A DNA stretch of 64,000 nucleotides from a virus (taxonomy: Duplodnaviria > Heunggongvirae > Uroviricota > Caudoviricetes), in the IMG/VR virus record IMGVR_UViG_2778261352_000001, positions 1 to 64,000 of that record; one strand, written 5' to 3'. Below the pieces are notes generated by a model. That model saw only the letters and a list, made by a program, of their open reading frames with translations. It had not been told where the DNA came from and did not search any database. Positions 27,801 through 58,638 of the stretch are shown here, piece after piece. Every line of letters begins with the position of its first letter. Within the stretch, counting starts at the first letter, position 1. The translations under genes and the position numbers were made by a program.

Positions 27801-28667
27801 ACCAATGAGTTCCGGGCGTCAGATTATGAGATCACCACAGCACAGTTTGGCACCATTGGCATTTACAGTAATAAAGACGAGATCAAGCAGGCAATGGACG
27901 CAGCAAGTGCGCGCATTGCAGCAGAACGGAAAGCCAATCTGAATCATGCAGTTGCCGCGCTGACTCAATCGTGGGTAACAGCAATCAGGGAGGCCGCCAC
28001 CACAGGAAAAATCACACCGGCAATTGCGGATGTCGTAAACGACGGCTCTAAATTTATGGATGCCTATAAAATGGATGCGGTGCAGTTGCCATCAGCCTAT
28101 GGCCAACTCAGCTATCGCATGACCTACAACCTGGTATCAATGTTTTCCGACCTTGCCATCCTTGGGCTGGTGGACCTTAACGAGGTTACGCCGGAATTGC
28201 TCAGCATGCGCAAGAACCATGTGGAGATATTGCACAGAATTAACACGGTACTTTCCGGGCGCACCGATGAAGAGAAACAGGCAGACGCTGATCGGATAAA
28301 CCTGGCCCTTGGCAACATCACGGAGGAAGAAATTGCCGCCAGAAACGAGAAACAAGAAGAGTTATCATCAATACAGGGTGATGCCACCAGCATAGCTCAG
28401 TCTCTTGGTCTGAATTATCGCGTATCCACCGCCGACCTGAAGATGATGTACGCACCAAAATTCGCCGCTGGCGAGGTATTTGGGCTTCAGGAGGCGTCCG
28501 GCATGAAAGGCATTCTTTTCCGTGCGAAAGACGCAATCAAGGCGAAATTCGGCGCTCGCTGGCTGCCAGCGAAGGCAAAGAACAGCGATTTCCCGGGTAA
28601 CTGGTGGATTATCGAGACAAAACACAACGTGGCGGACGTTCTGACCGTCATCCAACAATACGCATAA
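21900..28667 (+). CDS. darB: DarB-like methyltransferase-helicase (defence against restriction)
   Basis: 2255 aa; N-terminal MTase-like motif (NVPFGG), helicase motif II (VIADEGHNYRN); size matches P1 DarB. Confidence 0.85.
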   Translation: MNKLSMGVFRCSSVSEILKYIRAITSHRAPIRYGVEKVEGKSYDRLRREANQKAIDLLNSLVDGATLTDEQRQILAGYTGEGGIGGSVSEYYTPKPIAEGVWEIMKLYGADVGNTLEPSAGTGVFNETKPVGTVMTATEISSVSGRINQLLHPEDSVQISPFEQLAISTPNDSFDHVVGNVPFGGRDNTRNIDKPYAEETDMGSYFMLRMLDKIKPGGFMCVIVPPSIVSGSNMKRLRLRLSRKAEFLGAHRLPTGTFDANGTSTVVDVVLMRKHPAEMAEKIPLVDEGTLESANVLWPTFISGKWFEKDGRRFVHGTQEKGFQGRIEVRADGQIDNQALKAKLIHRFESRIDWSLLDMAEPSPTADVVGEGEMRLINGVWQKYAGGRWIEADAGKELKIDAASYGADSWEALQRNLTTTEGRLGMTFTQMANVRDKYTTSISDDMVQLVDWINSQPEKYRERLYRGAMIGRMLIEYQDMKAAGHSAEQIEQQRLSLVSRLQAEIDRFGNPGRGPIAKLSGSGARAWFAFRGAIKLDGTISDELTGKLVTHDSSASYDSTSYQDTLRYLYSDLTRDPIQLDDFRLAFTGELPASDDELLNLLASTPGIAVSPYGGIVPFARATSGDINEIVAPKQEFLATLPDGPVKNNVLNQLAAIEEKRIKTPAENIRFKLNSRWFDRSVILEFLQENGYPDLRYVQSVQLEGDEMVSDTYHGGDGLFVGHRYGVVQRKDKETGEIRYEWDRKSGENATGFPAQLEKYLNGARIGGKDSATANGYREQMALLEDQFNKWIKTHDRYDELVAKYNDVFNSNIPYEHSGDPLGLKGLSGKRQPFDYQNSEVRRLSEDGRGILGFGTGLGKTTTALALEAFNYENGRSTRTAYVVPKSVLENWYYEAKEFLSEEAFSNYLFVGLDVLMDGDQIRQVPVLDENGKPVLGTDGTPVMRDALKLADEATITARMNSIPHSNYRAVVFTKEQYARIPLRDDTVDEHAQDMLYDFVAAGRVASAMDSDSHRKEAARRRVLSEYSDTGTEKAEKYPYFEDMGFDSVIADEGHNYRNSYKNGREASQLAYLPTSAVAQSARDMAIKNAYLMKKNGGRGPVLLTATPVVNTPIDAYNMLSHVLPKEYWQKMGIYGPDDFVKFFGKTRLETVQKISGEVEEKMALVGFENLDALRGIFHRWVTLKTAEDVKDTVEIPELDEHQQDAPLTEEQLAAYEELRQQAEAAAKANNGVTSSVNEDGVIEHEKARPIFSIIRDMDRVCTDMDLYYRRITYRFLPEYADAVQQLADSLPKQATSEDDDSDDSITQQSQYSLIDKGEFIQLQVPEAFEQEVNKRLARFGIDEQTVTHPVTPKYAKLIATLKEFFPEGKQIIFTDEKTQHQKLKRIICNALNLEPSKVGILNAQTVAEAGKTGKKLKAVKPPKELPDEPTDAQIAKYNEQMALYDAYIAQQNEMSLGGLEKIAADFQEGRTPIIICNKKAEVGINLHRGTTDIHHLTLPWTPASIAQRNGRGARVGSNRASVRVHYYCGKGSFDEYRLKTLKRKAGWISDILRSDKSEMENADANDMIEMQMYTAKDDGERLAMMQVQMDKAKAAQRARQKEQATIDIQNYIKAQHAAGEDVEVLTAELERSKAELEKTTAEVAKFKQAVMAKAADNADWKARWGSVHHTDRTLLAQYRASLKSAIQRKANISQAISRYEKLLNRTQKAATDIKRLRPLVEDAINKGILDVDPDLVNHASEFLVIGDRSWRVGQYYDCAGDIVRIKSLDFDSQRADVEIIFTLKGTKSGNWDVKTLDKQVDVTPDEDAVIQKISGGVSIAGINDIISCDDFYRFQQRGMIKITDSYGIQTTESGYSIDFVGTYTDPLKHAVYPDRRDGALKSSIAKWVLGMMSEGNNRQVRLAEAFLVELFGSNYGDVIASYGDTLSPEAIQENIADAIAKMPEKTSQGATRNGDSELEVTNAIFGTNEFRASDYEITTAQFGTIGIYSNKDEIKQAMDAASARIAAERKANLNHAVAALTQSWVTAIREAATTGKITPAIADVVNDGSKFMDAYKMDAVQLPSAYGQLSYRMTYNLVSMFSDLAILGLVDLNEVTPELLSMRKNHVEILHRINTVLSGRTDEEKQADADRINLALGNITEEEIAARNEKQEELSSIQGDATSIAQSLGLNYRVSTADLKMMYAPKFAAGEVFGLQEASGMKGILFRAKDAIKAKFGARWLPAKAKNSDFPGNWWIIETKHNVADVLTVIQQYA

Positions 28668-28700
28668 CAGGAGCGCCCGGTTCGCCGGGCGTCGCATAAT

Positions 28701-29141
28701 ATGGCCACACTATCTGATACAATAAAACCGAATAAAACATATCTTGAGGCGGTACTGCGTACGGCGTTGTTAGGAAAGACAGAAGACGAATACGTTGATT
28801 TCTTCCTGTCAGGGCTACGCGGGCGATTACTGAAAAATCCCCGCCTGTACCGCAGCTATGGTCCATACTGGCCGGAAATTAAAAAATTATTACTGGAGCG
28901 CGGTTATGGTAATTTCGGTCGTCTCGTTGACCGTGACGTTCGCAAAATTTACCGTTATGACCGCCCGGCGCTAACACTCATAGCCGCGACGCTCTACAGC
29001 CAGGAGCGTTTTGATAATGGTCAGATATACTCAGCCTGGCACTTACTGCCAGTGCCTGAAGAAGTTGACGACCAGGACTATGAGTTTGAGTCTTACGATT
29101 TGGAAGTTGAAGCCTTGGCACAGGCTGGAGAGAAAACTTGA
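28701..29141 (+). CDS. ulx: Ulx-like protein
   Basis: 146 aa downstream of darB; synteny only. Confidence 0.4.
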   Translation: MATLSDTIKPNKTYLEAVLRTALLGKTEDEYVDFFLSGLRGRLLKNPRLYRSYGPYWPEIKKLLLERGYGNFGRLVDRDVRKIYRYDRPALTLIAATLYSQERFDNGQIYSAWHLLPVPEEVDDQDYEFESYDLEVEALAQAGEKT

Positions 29142-29386
29142 AAAAGCGATACTACACAGTAAAGCATGGGACGCTACGAGCATTACAAGAGTTTGCTGAC
29201 AAGCATAACGTTGAGGTGCGCAGGGAAGGGGGAAGTAAAGCTCTGCGCATGTACCGTCCGGACGGGAAATGGCGTACGGTCGTCGATTTCAAAACTAACA
29301 GTGTTCCCCAGGGTGTCCGCGATCGGGCATTCGAAGAATGGGAGCAGATCATCATAGATAACGCATTGCTTCTCAATGCTGATTGA
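29138..29386 (+). CDS. lxc: Lxc-like small protein
   Basis: 82 aa, TTG start overlapping upstream stop; synteny only. Confidence 0.4.
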   Translation: MKKRYYTVKHGTLRALQEFADKHNVEVRREGGSKALRMYRPDGKWRTVVDFKTNSVPQGVRDRAFEEWEQIIIDNALLLNAD

Positions 29387-29395
29387 GTTTTGTTG

Positions 29396-29420
29396 GCCCG
29401 GTTTGCACCGGGCGTTTCAC
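29396..29420 (+). terminator. possible terminator hairpin after lxc
   Basis: GCCCGG-TTTGCA-CCGGGC followed by GTTT; weak T-run. Confidence 0.35.
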
Positions 29421-29468
29421 AAACAATCAACTGGTTTGTAATTCCTGCGGCGAGATGGATTATTTATA

Positions 29469-30077
29469 TTATTGTGGTGCCGATGATGCGATAGCCTGCA
29501 TGATGTTATCAATATCGTTATCGTTCAGCATGAATATAGGTACACCATTAGAGTTTGCATTTTTTTCAGTGCTCATCAAACAAAGCCCCTCATACATGCC
29601 GCGCGTTTTTTTGAAATTGGCGACTGATGGAGTGGTGTAATTTCCTTTAAAGTGCATTCCGGCTGATTCATAAAAAGGAACCAAATCAGACTGGCAAATC
29701 AAAGCAACCTCATTTGGAAATGCAAGTATTTCTGCCAGTATATTACTTCCAAGTCCATTACCACGATATTGCTCATATACATATATTTTGTGACAGTACA
29801 ACGGAAAATTACCCGATGGATGTCCGAAGATTAAGGCGTATCCGAACAAGTTTTCTTCATTAGTAAAGCCCATAATGCGCAAATGACCGGCTCGGTAACA
29901 CTCTTCAAATACGTTAATTATGTAGTTTCTCGCTGCTTTCAGCTCCTCTTCTGTCGCAAACATCATCAACCCCATAAGCGATGGAGTATAGGCCAGATCC
30001 TGAAGAATCCCATTAGCTTCATTTTCGAAAATAAGCGGTAAGCGCGGTTCAATTTCATTTGCCGAGGTATTAGACAT
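29469..30077 (-). CDS. GNAT-family N-acetyltransferase
   Basis: 202 aa; acetyl-CoA-binding motif A YRGNGLGSNIL; AT-rich gene and flanks. Confidence 0.6.
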   Translation of the reverse strand: MSNTSANEIEPRLPLIFENEANGILQDLAYTPSLMGLMMFATEEELKAARNYIINVFEECYRAGHLRIMGFTNEENLFGYALIFGHPSGNFPLYCHKIYVYEQYRGNGLGSNILAEILAFPNEVALICQSDLVPFYESAGMHFKGNYTTPSVANFKKTRGMYEGLCLMSTEKNANSNGVPIFMLNDNDIDNIMQAIASSAPQ

Positions 30078-30083
30078 AGTATG

Positions 30084-30111
30084 ATGAGTCCTTTGTTTTC
30101 AAAGGACTCAT
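30084..30111 (-). promoter_or_regulatory. perfect 12-bp-stem hairpin sequestering the RBS of the GNAT gene
   Basis: ATGAGTCCTTTG-TTTT-CAAAGGACTCAT ends 6 nt before the ATG. Confidence 0.4.
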
Positions 30112-30275
30112 GTTATCAGTGATAATCGTTTGTTGTAATACTGTTGATAAAATAATTTTCTATTATGTAAGCAAGCTCATTTTTATGACGGGTAATGCAA
30201 AAAAATAGAATCAAAAAACTAAAAAAATAATAATTCATAGGGTTTTACACCATCAAAAGTCCCCGCCATAAATTA

Positions 30276-30917
30276 TTAGAAATAATTACGCGTGCCTGTT
30301 AATACCCCTTTCGGCACTTTTTTTTGTTCTAGTGTCTGGGTGCCCAGAATTATGTTAATCAGAGGGCTTAGTAACGATGGTTCCTGGCGTGCCTCAACTT
30401 CTCCAGCCATTGCCCTGATGTAGTCGGCGCTGGCAACGTTGTTGTATTCCGTCGCAAAGCAACATAGTAACGTCAGAACATGCTCTGTCGTTATTTCGCT
30501 CCAGTTGATGTTGAAAAATTCATCGCCTTTTTTATCGTGTTCGGAATCGAAGATGCTTTGGTGGAGGATGTATTTGCCGGATTCCTTGCGCGGTAACTTG
30601 ATTGCTTTCTGGCGTTCCAGCTCCTTATAAATCTGCATTGCCTCAATTAGTACCGGCCTGCCGTTCATGAAGGGATCGCGCAACCTTACACGCTGGCCAA
30701 CTCGACCAGTAATAAAGCTGTTTTCCTCTTCCACCAGCACGATAAAACCCTTTTCCTCTTTTTCTCGCAATTCGCGCAGCAGCTGGAGTTCCATATCGCG
30801 GCGGCGTTCAGGGTAGCTGGTCCGCTCAGCCATTATCAGCTCGTTATTGATCCATGCAGCAGTCATTGACGCCGGTTTGCCGACGCTCATCGAAACAACG
30901 CATATTTTCTTATCCAT
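30276..30917 (-). CDS. mat: particle maturation (Mat)-like protein
   Basis: synteny between ref and the res/mod position; ATG 30917 with AGGGG RBS (track extends to GTG 30986). Confidence 0.45.
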   Translation of the reverse strand: MDKKICVVSMSVGKPASMTAAWINNELIMAERTSYPERRRDMELQLLRELREKEEKGFIVLVEEENSFITGRVGQRVRLRDPFMNGRPVLIEAMQIYKELERQKAIKLPRKESGKYILHQSIFDSEHDKKGDEFFNINWSEITTEHVLTLLCCFATEYNNVASADYIRAMAGEVEARQEPSLLSPLINIILGTQTLEQKKVPKGVLTGTRNYF

Positions 30918-31046
30918 AGCGCCCCTACAAAAAAGAAAAGCCACCAGCGGCGGCTTAGCAATACAACTGAAGGTAGCGCCCGGCACTCAGACTGTGCCGT
31001 CCATGGAATATTTGAAAAGGGATCCATCCGTACCGGGCGTGTGATG

Positions 31047-31066
31047 ATTCTGACTGAAGTCACTTG
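31047..31066 (-). promoter_or_regulatory. putative late promoter for mat (CAAGTGACT-N5-CAGAAT)
   Basis: exact 9-mer on minus strand with 5-nt spacer and -10-like hexamer. Confidence 0.5.
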
Positions 31067-31105
31067 TCAGTTGTCAATCATTTATCATTAAAAATAATAT
31101 ATTTA

Positions 31106-31666
31106 TTAGTGCATGATGTTTGCCATCTCATAGGCGTCAGCCAGTAACTCCATCTCTGACTTGTTCAGCAGGGTGAATTCTTTCTTGCCTCCAACCACAC
31201 CATCGGCATGAACAGGGACCAGCCAGGGGTATTTTGCTCTTACTTCAGCCGGTGCTGCATGCTGGTGGTGCCATCTACAAAGTGGCAATTGCTTTTTATG
31301 ACAACCCGGCGCGGTACGACCGGCGATATGGTGCAGAGACACCTCATTAGATATTACTCCATGCATATAGCAGGCAATGCAGGGGAGAGCGCCAAGAGCA
31401 TTGGCGATGCGCCGTTCCTCCGCCGTTGGTGTTCTCCCCTTCAAGCCACGAGATTTTATTTTTACCGCGCTTTTCCGCGTTTTGCTGGCTGGTGGGCGCT
31501 CTTTCTGTTTAGCGATACGGCGGTCGATAGTATCCCGCATTTTCTGATATTGAGATTCTCGCCAGACCGGATCAGCCAACTTTTCCCGTTGCCGAGCGAT
31601 CGCTCGTTCTCTGGCTGCCTTCTGCCACTTGCGGCACTGTTCAATTTTTTGTTCGATTGTTTTCAT
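31106..31666 (-). CDS. ref: recombination enhancement function Ref (HNH endonuclease)
   Basis: 186 aa; HNH-like Cys/His cluster CIACYMHG...HHIAG...CHKKQLPLCRWHHQ; adjacent to cre. Confidence 0.8.
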   Translation of the reverse strand: MKTIEQKIEQCRKWQKAARERAIARQREKLADPVWRESQYQKMRDTIDRRIAKQKERPPASKTRKSAVKIKSRGLKGRTPTAEERRIANALGALPCIACYMHGVISNEVSLHHIAGRTAPGCHKKQLPLCRWHHQHAAPAEVRAKYPWLVPVHADGVVGGKKEFTLLNKSEMELLADAYEMANIMH

Positions 31667-32275: not shown

Positions 32276-33307
32276 CTAATCGCCATCTTCCAGCAGGCGC
32301 ACCATTGCCCCCGTTTCACTATCCAGATTACGGATATAGTTCATGACAATATTTACGTTGGTCCAGCCACCAGCTTGCATGATCTCCGGTATTGAAACTC
32401 CGGCGCGGGCCATATCTCGCGCGGCTCCGACACGGGCACTGTGTCCAGACCAAGCCAGGTACCTCTGGCCAGAGTCATCCTTAGCCCCGTAAATCAATCG
32501 GTGAGTTGCTTCAAAAATCCCTTCCAGGGCGCGAGTTGATAGCTGGCTGGTGGATGATGGCGAGGCAACACCATTTTTTCTGACCCGGCAAAACAAGTAG
32601 TTATTCGGATCATCAGCCACACCAGAGACAGAAATCCATCGCTCGACCAGTTTAGTTACCCCCAGGCTAAGCGCCTTCTCTACACCTGCGGTGCTAACCA
32701 GCGTTTTCGTTCTGCCAATATGGATTAACATTCTCCCACCGTCAGTACGTGAGATATCTTTAACCCTGATCCTGGCAATTTCGGCTATACGTAACAGGGT
32801 GTTATAAGCAATCCCCAGAAATGCCAGATTACGTATATCCTGGCAGCGATCGCTATTTTCCATGAGTGAACGAACCTGGTCGAAATCAGTGCGTTCGAAC
32901 GCTAGTGCCTGTTTTGCACGTTCACCGGCATCAACGTTTTCTTTTCGGATCCGCCGCATGACCAGTGAAACAGCATTGCTGTCACTTGGTCGTGGCAGCC
33001 CGGACCGACGATGAAGCATGTTTAGCTGGCCCAAATGTTGCTGGATAGTTTTTACTGCCAGACCGCGCGCCTGAAGATATAGAAGATAATCGCGAACATC
33101 TTCAGGTTCTGCGGGAAACCATTTCCGGTTATTCAACTTGCACCATGCCGCCCATGACCGGCAAACGGACAGAAGCATTTTCCAGGTATGCTCAGAAAAC
33201 GCCTGGCGATCCCTGAACATGTCCATCAGGTTCTTGCGAACCTCATCACTCGTTGCATCGACCGGTAATGCAGGCAAATTTTGGTGTACGGTCAGTAAAT
33301 TGGACAT
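32276..33307 (-). CDS. cre: Cre tyrosine recombinase
   Basis: 343 aa, MSNLLTVHQNLPALPVDATSDEVRKNLMDMFRDRQAFSEHTWKMLLSVCRSWAAWCKLNNRKWFPAEPEDVRDYLLYLQARGLAVKT... matches Cre. Confidence 0.97.
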   Translation of the reverse strand: MSNLLTVHQNLPALPVDATSDEVRKNLMDMFRDRQAFSEHTWKMLLSVCRSWAAWCKLNNRKWFPAEPEDVRDYLLYLQARGLAVKTIQQHLGQLNMLHRRSGLPRPSDSNAVSLVMRRIRKENVDAGERAKQALAFERTDFDQVRSLMENSDRCQDIRNLAFLGIAYNTLLRIAEIARIRVKDISRTDGGRMLIHIGRTKTLVSTAGVEKALSLGVTKLVERWISVSGVADDPNNYLFCRVRKNGVASPSSTSQLSTRALEGIFEATHRLIYGAKDDSGQRYLAWSGHSARVGAARDMARAGVSIPEIMQAGGWTNVNIVMNYIRNLDSETGAMVRLLEDGD

Positions 33308-33725: not shown

Positions 33726-33759
33726 ATAACTTCGTATAATGTATGCTATACGAAGTTAT
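33726..33759 (+). other. loxP: loxP recombination site
   Basis: exact ATAACTTCGTATA-ATGTATGC-TATACGAAGTTAT. Confidence 0.97.
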
Positions 33760-58488: not shown

Positions 58489-58571
58489 TCGCCATTCAAA
58501 TTTCACCATTAAATTACTGTTTTTAAAGTAAATACTTCTAAAATTTCAAGGTGAAATCGCCACGATTTCAC
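58489..58571. other. parS: parS centromere (ATTTCAC boxes A and TCGCCA boxes B around an AT-rich bend site)
   Basis: TCGCCATTCAAATTTCAC ... GTGAAATCGCCACGATTTCAC. Confidence 0.7.
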
Positions 58572-58638
58572 CTTGGATTTTACCTTCCTCCCCTCCTCCC
58601 GAAAAAAATAAAAAAATTGCTTGTCACGAGAAAGTCAA

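Follow-up and report, generated by a model that had tools for sequence, protein, structure and literature searches.

A perfect hairpin over the ribosome-binding site of a GNAT cargo gene in a P1-like phage-plasmid may insulate the gene from read-through transcription

The leader of a gene annotated as encoding a GNAT-family N-acetyltransferase carries a perfect 12-bp inverted repeat, which in our preferred reading (with a probability of roughly 0.45) serves as a fold-back insulator: the ribosome-binding site (RBS) would be locked on read-through RNA only, and GNAT would be translated from its own promoter. This reading was reached on a 64-kb stretch of DNA (hereafter the window, meaning the whole stretch analyzed) and starts from the stem itself, its stability, its position relative to a conserved motif and its restriction to one lineage. 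The arrangement of the hairpin would then have been selected rather than being incidental. The feature is most likely an ordinary, known type of control device (RBS fold-back depending on the origin of the transcript), or possibly a fresh palindrome, and not a conserved RNA switch. The coordinates of the features discussed below are collected in Table 1.

Table 1. Features of the GNAT cassette and its upstream region (positions in the window).
Feature	Position	Strand	Remarks
mat control region	31047..31115	minus	matches the annotated P1 counterpart: C1 operator Omat, sigma-70 promoter Pmat, late promoter LPmat
mat (maturation control)	30276..30986	minus	co-oriented with GNAT and upstream of it; gap to hairpin 165 nt
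AT-rich spacer	30112..30275	minus	from the mat stop to the promoter/hairpin; specific to the cassette lineage of the window
Promoter-like site TTGATG-18-TATTAT	30256..30227	minus	9/12 match; in the AT-rich spacer
-35-like hexamer TTACAA	30133..30138	minus	weak; 17 bp upstream of TAACAT; 3/6 against TTGACA; below the scan threshold
6-1-6 palindrome TTATCACTGATAA	30113..30125		overlaps TG and TAA of the extended -10
Candidate extended -10 promoter TGATAACAT	30110..30118	minus	TG 30118-30117; hexamer TAACAT 30115..30110
Perfect 12-bp inverted repeat, 4-nt loop	30084..30111	minus	RNA AUGAGUCCUUUG-AAAA-CAAAGGACUCAU; 100% complementarity in the repeat search
5' arm of hairpin	30111..30100	minus	
Loop of hairpin	30099..30096	minus	
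3' arm of hairpin	30095..30084	minus	
Shine-Dalgarno core AAGGA	30089..30093	minus	within the 3' arm; sole SD; 11 nt before the ATG
Spacer CATACT	30083..30078	minus	
GNAT start codon ATG	30077..30075	minus	
GNAT-family N-acetyltransferase, 202 aa	29469..30077	minus	sole gene of the cassette; annotated GNAT in records
GC-rich hairpin GCCCGG-TGCAAA-CCGGGC	29396..29413		between convergent GNAT and lxc; kept in L005

Judging from its sequence, the window is a P1-like phage-plasmid. The genes encoding Cre (33307..32276), a Cra/C8-like ORF, Ref, Mat and GNAT are located near the hairpin on the minus strand, and those encoding Lxc, Ulx and the 2255-aa DarB face the GNAT side on the plus strand. In DNA searches, the 1.1 kb around the hairpin showed 100% identity with the E. 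coli plasmid CP134893.1; in phage P1 and its relatives, the match was confined to the mat and lxc edges of this segment. The interval between mat and lxc is the variable region 'RD-1' of P1-like elements, which is a recorded hot-spot for cargo genes (PMC6906374, PMC10865808). It is occupied by res/mod in the P1 annotation, and the contents of the slot in other P1-like elements are res/mod, relA-P1, other ORFs, or nothing: in the 'empty-site' relative L005, mat directly adjoins the GC-rich hairpin and lxc. The GNAT gene is a one-gene cargo cassette of about 880 bp placed in this slot, and the GC-rich hairpin is likely to be both a terminator shared by GNAT and lxc and the right boundary of the cassette. 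Prophage morons are said to be autonomous cargo units of phage genomes, consisting of a promoter, a gene and a terminator. The GNAT cassette would be moron-like, since a single non-phage gene with its own conserved candidate promoter is inserted between mat and lxc; an RBS-locking palindrome across the start site is not, however, a general feature of morons, and it is missing from the sister cassettes. In one relative, ISApl1-mcr-1 was found to be inserted within the GNAT gene itself.

The GNAT protein matches the Pfam families PF13673 (Acetyltransf_10; 27.6 bits vs. a cut-off of 23.6) and PF00583 (Acetyltransf_1; 25.5 vs. 20.7), the uncharacterised phage protein family phrog_10454 over its full length, and the PDB entry 9s30, which is named GNAT (E = 2e-132; residues 31-232 of the entry match residues 1-202). 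The residues R105-G106-x-G108-x-G110 conserved in the homologues are consistent with the acetyl-CoA-binding motif Q/RxxGxG/A of GNAT enzymes. The start codon is backed by the N-terminal alignment of 18 homologues, by the RefSeq annotations and by PDB 9s30. The family is small (23 clusters, from Enterobacterales and Pseudomonas), and its members are always solitary genes in mobile contexts; the neighbours differ in every context examined, and no conserved small partner ORF was detected beside GNAT. Among the PDB profile matches at E<=0.01, which were named arylalkylamine, diamine and other generic acetyltransferases, none bore the name of a toxin, and PADLOC gave no match on GNAT. Since partner gene, toxin-like PDB relative and PADLOC match are all lacking, a GNAT-RHH type II toxin (of the TacT/AtaT/KacT type) or a known defence protein was rejected, and nothing therefore suggests a toxin demanding tight silencing. 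Literature searches turned up no paper on PDB 9s30 and none on the occurrence of this GNAT in P1-like elements.

On the minus strand, the leader reads ...TTATCACTGATAAC-ATGAGTCCTTTG-AAAA-CAAAGGACTCAT-CATACT-ATG. An earlier note on this DNA had described a perfect 12-bp hairpin occluding the RBS of the GNAT gene, which is confirmed here by the full complementarity of the arms and by the 17.7 kcal/mol required to open the SD..AUG region; the interval 30078-30114 given in that note comprises the hairpin and the spacer. The claim that AAGGA is the only Shine-Dalgarno (SD) sequence and lies in the 3' arm is also correct, and the distance of 6 nt to the ATG is that of the end of the stem, not that of the SD core (11 nt). 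The distance from SD to start ranges from 6 to 9 nt in nearly all the relatives examined, where the equivalent position is occupied by AAGGAG, AAGGA or AGGA; in the distant phage-borne homologue L017 it amounts to 11 nt. The palindrome reported just upstream is indeed present (TTATCACTGATAA at 30125..30113); palindromes of the 6-1-6 type are not uncommon in themselves. It includes the TG and the first three bases of the -10 hexamer, is imperfect in the 85% cassettes L002/L003 (TATCGCTGATA) and is missing from the non-P1 relatives (TTTCGCTGCTAA). The hairpin itself is far beyond chance: first-order Markov sequences built from the transition frequencies of the 64-kb window gave an expectation of 0.07 perfect hairpins (at least 12 bp, with a loop of 3-10 nt) per 64 kb, against the three present in the window, which are those of the GNAT leader, loxP and a palindrome at 58547.

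The folding energy of the 71-nt leader is -18.5 kcal/mol, as compared with -7.6 +/- 2.3 in shuffled sequences (z = -4.8, 0/200), and the centroid fold of the hairpin amounts to about -17 kcal/mol. On a long transcript, the cost of opening SD..AUG given above compares with 5.1 +/- 1.5 kcal/mol when the upstream part is shuffled (0/300). The predicted energy of the isolated stem goes from -18.7 kcal/mol at 30 C through -16.6 at 37 C to -15.0 at 42 C, and in the predicted fold the 12-bp stem is still present at 60 C and 11 bp of it at 70 C. On RNA carrying both arms, the SD is predicted to be locked in a very stable stem, and a cis blockade of translation would be physically sound. An RNA thermometer is ruled out by this predicted stability, since the stem is not expected to melt between 30 and 42 C. 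A Rho-independent terminator is ruled out because the flanking sequence, CAUACUAUG on the minus and GUUAUCAGU on the plus strand, offers no U-tract directly behind the stem, and because the terminator scan did not call it.

The earlier note missed the overlap between the hairpin and a likely promoter. Among homologues with protein identities down to about 63%, the leader is best conserved at the motif TGnTAAnAT (in the form TGnTAACAT or TGnTAATAT), which is located 25-34 nt before the start in all the enterobacterial homologues examined. In the window it is represented by TGATAACAT, the last two bases of which are the first two of the 5' arm of the hairpin and the hexamer of which ends 32 nt before the GNAT ATG. 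In the alignment of 12 leaders, TG.TAA.AT is invariant (the full invariant string being TC..TG.TAA.AT), and the flanks diverge or are replaced; the leader of L015 (about 63% amino acid identity) is otherwise unalignable, yet TGnTAAnAT is present. The chance of finding the 7-base motif within +/-3 nt of its expected place was estimated at about 4e-4. The sequence TGATAACAT shows the attributes of a sigma-70 extended -10 element: TG one base upstream, A at position 2 and T at position 6. In combination with a -35 hexamer matching at three positions out of six, TAACAT would make a modest promoter. A P1 late (Lpa-type) promoter was rejected, since no equivalent of the LPmat box AAGTGACTT-N4-CAGAAT precedes TAACAT. 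The window cassette and the 85% cassettes L002/L003 become homologous about 10 nt before TGnTAAnAT, which suggests that the promoter and the UTR travel with the gene. Taken together, these data point to TGnTAAnAT as the probable active promoter of GNAT.

The transcription start predicted from this motif (canonical, 7 nt after the hexamer) falls at ~30103, within the 5' arm, so that an mRNA from the gene's own promoter would be devoid of most of this arm and its RBS would be accessible; as positions 6-9 after the hexamer are all pyrimidines, this start site is uncertain. When the 5' end of the transcript was moved along the leader, the cost of opening SD..AUG was 17-18 kcal/mol as long as the 5' end lay at 30109 or further upstream, 13 kcal/mol at 30108-30107, 5.5 at 30104 and 3.1-3.5 from 30103 downstream, the short transcripts of the relatives requiring 3.4-7.5. 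In this model, the accessibility of the RBS depends steeply on the 5' end of the transcript, and the RBS on the transcript predicted to start at ~30103 is as open as in the relatives (3.5 kcal/mol). If the promoter is used, the occlusion described in the earlier note applies to read-through transcripts only.

As regards the origin of such transcripts, mat is their likely source, and read-through from this gene is plausible. In the mat control region, Pmat has TTGACA at 31077..31072, and LPmat has its -22 box AAGTGACTT at 31065..31057 and the -10 sequence CAGAAT at 31052..31047. The terminator scan detected no canonical intrinsic terminator between mat and GNAT. An AU-rich stem followed by U7 (30278..30221), which includes the mat stop codons, is no better than shuffled sequences (z = -0.02) and could at most cause partial termination of the mat transcripts; insofar as it terminates some of them, the need for insulation would be reduced. 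A 40-codon ORF (30238..30116) was rejected as a leader peptide or antitoxin: changes in the length of a T-run break it in the 96.8% clade (L001), and it is therefore spurious.

On these bases, the following mechanism can be proposed. The GNAT gene would have its own sigma-70 extended -10 promoter (TGATAACAT), followed by a short 5' UTR, and would share a downstream hairpin with lxc. In one sub-lineage, the segment that starts where the -10 hexamer ends and stops 6 nt short of the ATG has become a 12-bp (usually 11-bp) inverted repeat. The mRNA initiated at the gene's own promoter, starting at ~30103 within the 5' arm, would keep an accessible RBS. Transcripts coming from mat, under its C1-repressed and late lytic promoters, or from the AT-rich spacer would carry both arms and fold at once, and ribosomes could not be loaded on the GNAT start of the folded read-through RNA. 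The translation of GNAT would in this way be uncoupled from phage transcription, and its expression would be confined to its own promoter. A more specific version of the fold-back insulator, which we regard as doubtful, is that the palindrome is a recently evolved 'transcript-origin filter', GNAT being translated only from the lysogenic sigma-70 promoter and silent on late-lytic LPmat read-through, and that it arose de novo in the RD-1 slot, probably by one template switch.

The distribution of the stem was analyzed in homologues with upstream DNA, which came from P1-like plasmids at 96.8% and 85% identity, Serratia chromosomes, Klebsiella IncFII plasmids, Enterobacter, Providencia, Raoultella, Serratia marcescens, Pseudomonas, metagenomic/phage contigs and viral contigs. 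Homology of the leader extends across the enterobacterial members; the 12-bp stem is confined to the window's own clade, which is single, young and 96-100% identical. The stem is missing from the homologues with 85% nucleotide identity (L002/L003) and from those with <=75% protein identity. The 85% cassettes, located in the same P1 slot, read GCTGATAACATCAGCTTAAAAAACGAAGGAGTTTTTCT-ATG, in which the SD stands 7 nt before the start and the stem is missing. In these P1-borne cassettes in the same position, no significant occluding structure was detected (63-77 out of 300 shuffles reach their value). The stem therewith appears as a derived and recent feature of one cassette sub-lineage. Among 20 PLSDB plasmids carrying this leader, two match the window exactly and the other 18 have a single difference over 86 nt; in all six of the 18 variants that were read, the final base of the 3' arm is C instead of T, which gives an A.C mismatch and an 11-bp stem, and four viral contigs carry the same C and the same 11-bp stem. 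The perfect 12-bp form is a minority allele. The only polymorphism weakens the terminal pair and there is no covariation, which weakens the case for selection on the stem.

The occlusion of the RBS is not a property of the family. In the shuffle tests, it was significant in the window clade only, and the RBS of L006, L008 and L014 was more open than in about 98% of the shuffles. The fact that an open RBS is the norm in this family suggests that the gene is built to be translated. Perfect 7-nt anti-SD matches occur upstream of the -10 in L002/L003 (CUCCUUC:GAAGGAG) and in L015 (CUCCCUG:CAGGGAG). A convergent, family-wide occlusion of the SD was rejected, as the observed values were reached by 77/300 and 63/300 shuffles in L002/L003 and by 12/120 in L015. 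The consensus fold of the 12 homologous leaders (RNAalifold) amounts to -0.55 kcal/mol and consists of seven long-range pairs, none of which is the hairpin, with no meaningful covariation, and the cmscan search of positions 28500-31500 on both strands against Rfam 15 (E<=1) gave 0 matches. A half-site search for either arm elsewhere in the 64-kb window (<=2 mismatches) yielded eight matches vs. 5.4 expected, none of them with fewer than two mismatches. Since these matches are at chance level in the window, it contains no candidate trans-acting RNA or second operator, and an operator for a phage regulator or a target of a trans RNA was rejected. The translational control by an RNA switch, sRNA or protein put forward in the earlier note holds as far as the locking of the SD in cis is concerned, but not as regards a dedicated switch or an sRNA target, for which Rfam match, covariation, occlusion in the family and match in trans are all lacking.

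Riboswitches, RNA thermometers and terminators resemble the GNAT leader in having a hairpin that involves the SD. They differ from it in that the GNAT leader shows neither an aptamer-sized conserved structure nor an Rfam match, as regards riboswitches, and in that the stem is too stable to melt at physiological temperature and has no U-tract, as regards thermometers and terminators.

Another explanation, which we consider unlikely, is that the hairpin is a true silencer located in the 5' UTR. The main GNAT transcript would start upstream of the hairpin, for example at the promoter-like site 30256..30227, in which case the whole stem would lie in a genuine 5' UTR, and translation would be very low, either constitutively or until the stem is opened; the opening could be due to an sRNA or a protein binding the 5' arm, to a helicase, or to ribosomes translating a 13-codon uORF. 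The stable stem does bury the SD fully, and the promoter-like site lies within the lineage-specific AT-rich spacer, but this site is one of six matches in the scan, vs. 3.5 expected in AT-rich DNA. The uORF starts at the first AUG of the stem (30111), and its TAA stop overlaps codons 2-3 of GNAT; this geometry fits translational coupling, and the 11-bp allele preserves it. The uORF is, however, devoid of an SD and missing from the relatives, where ATC replaces ATG, on which grounds it was rejected as a coupling device; as it overlaps the -10 hexamer, it cannot be present in a transcript from the gene's own promoter. It also counts against a 5'-UTR silencer that no Rfam match and no structure conserved across the family were found, that no complement to either arm occurs beyond chance elsewhere in the window, that the stem (-15 kcal/mol at 42 C) is too stable for a thermosensor, and that this explanation assigns no role to the conserved extended -10. 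A precedent exists in IS200, where a stem-loop in the 5' UTR of tnpA sequesters the SD constitutively and strongly limits 30S binding, together with an antisense sRNA and Hfq (PMC4513863). In both cases a cis stem buries a good SD in a mobile-element setting, but the IS200 stem lies inside its own transcript, whereas the 5' arm is probably not part of the GNAT gene's own transcript, and the window yielded no antisense RNA.

Still less likely is the possibility that the palindrome is a mutational by-product, that is, a neutral or mildly expression-lowering hitch-hiker created by one-step template switching, or else that it acts at the DNA level as an operator or cruciform over positions -8..+20 of the promoter. 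A weak ancestral quasi-palindrome, CTTTG-A(n)-CGAAG, still exists in the Serratia relatives, and the changes that created the stem are clustered on both arms in comparison with the relatives, the 3' arm (AAGGACTC) being nearly ancestral. Changes clustered on both arms are typical of quasi-palindrome correction, which is an established mutational mechanism. The presence of the stem in a single young clade and the fact that the sole variant erodes it also fit a by-product. The consequence at the RNA level is nevertheless unavoidable for any transcript carrying both arms, so that the term by-product concerns selection and not effect. In favour of a DNA site, the palindrome lies directly over the promoter, and the other two perfect palindromes of at least 12 bp in the window, loxP and a parS-like site, are DNA sites; but no regulator is encoded in the cassette, the half-site has no second copy within the 64 kb examined, and repressor operators do not usually have a 28-bp 12-4-12 geometry. 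It is very improbable that the hairpin is a 3'-end element of the mat RNA (a terminator or a barrier to 3' exonucleases, like REP-type hairpins): although a strong stem does lie downstream of this co-oriented gene with no other canonical terminator in between, it has no U-tract on either strand and was not called by the terminator scan, it stands 165 nt past the mat stop inside the cargo DNA, and it is missing in other P1-like elements, where other sequences or the GC-rich hairpin directly follow mat.

The fold-back insulator has a close parallel in the insertion sequences IS10 and IS50, in which fold-back inhibition reportedly shields the transposase from external promoters. In these elements, a sequence complementary to the RBS is present upstream of the gene's own start; RNA reading through from outside folds back and is untranslatable, and the gene's own mRNA is open. 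The predicted geometry in the window is the same, and the sequestering sequence is a 12-bp stem containing AAGGA (0/300 shuffles). The GNAT cassette differs from IS10/IS50 in that its gene is a cargo acetyltransferase in a phage-plasmid and not a transposase, and in that its 5' arm overlaps the -10 hexamer itself and belongs to a short-range perfect hairpin.

The biology involved would hardly surprise a specialist, and the principle is known. The annotation of such leaders calls for caution, as calling a hairpin over an RBS a 'switch' presupposes knowledge of the transcription start. If the fold-back insulator is confirmed, the GNAT leader would be a compact natural case, outside insertion sequences, in which translation is made to depend on the origin of the transcript, and if the more specific transcript-origin filter is true, it would provide a natural and datable example of an acquired gene insulated from its new transcriptional neighbourhood. 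It would show how cargo genes inserted in the hot-spots of phage-plasmids become insulated from strong phage promoters, and would bear on the expression and the fitness cost of the cargo genes carried in this slot, including those linked to resistance.

The P1-type backbone of the window is confirmed by the presence of loxP adjoining cre, and a perfect 13-bp palindrome elsewhere in the window resembles the core (boxA/boxB) of parS, the centromere of P1. The GNAT protein of the window corresponds to the practically exact protein deposited as PDB 9s30 (E = 2e-132; tagged construct, 232 aa), for which no associated publication was found in a literature search.

Positions of the features identified around the GNAT cassette and in the P1 backbone
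Feature	Position	Strand	Sequence
GNAT gene	29469-30077	minus	
Promoter-like site	30098-30126	plus (opposite to GNAT)	TTCAAA-17-GATAAT
AT-rich spacer	30112-30275		
40-codon ORF	30238..30116		
AU-rich stem, then U7	30278-30221		
loxP	33726-33759		ATAACTTCGTATA-ATGTATGC-TATACGAAGTTAT
Perfect 13-bp palindrome	58547-58575		CAAGGTGAAATCG-CCA-CGATTTCACCTTG

The same GNAT gene, preceded by a leader with the same 11-bp hairpin, occurs in the relative pHYEC7-mcr1 (NZ_KX518745.1, locus 3100-5609), where it is split after approximately codon 95 by ISApl1 with mcr-1.1: the colistin-resistance module is therefore located within the GNAT cargo gene. The non-P1 relatives L006, L007, L008, L010, L011, L013, and L014 share a conserved block of about 100 nt, lying about 60-110 nt 5' of the GNAT start and including the mini-palindrome CCTGNCAGG followed by TAAATATTTG; P1-borne cassettes carry unrelated DNA in its place. 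In the most distant homologs, those of the Pseudomonas-type contigs L012 and L018 (about 46% amino acid identity), a co-oriented 168-aa ORF is located 85-88 nt upstream of the GNAT gene, and a DUF4942 gene is present close by. Since the TGnTAAnAT motif, a candidate extended -10 promoter element, is absent from L012 and L018, the GNAT gene in this branch may be operonic rather than autonomous.

The AT-rich spacer between mat and GNAT was found only together with the GNAT cassette (20 plasmids, identity 95-100%). Its T-runs vary in length, and these changes disrupt the 40-codon ORF in relatives. The AU-rich stem followed by U7, which involves both this spacer and the stop codons of mat immediately 5' of it, is a possible weak terminator. 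The promoter-like site draws on the loop region of the hairpin and on the palindrome upstream of it; if active, it would give rise to a transcript antisense to both the spacer and the 3' end of mat.
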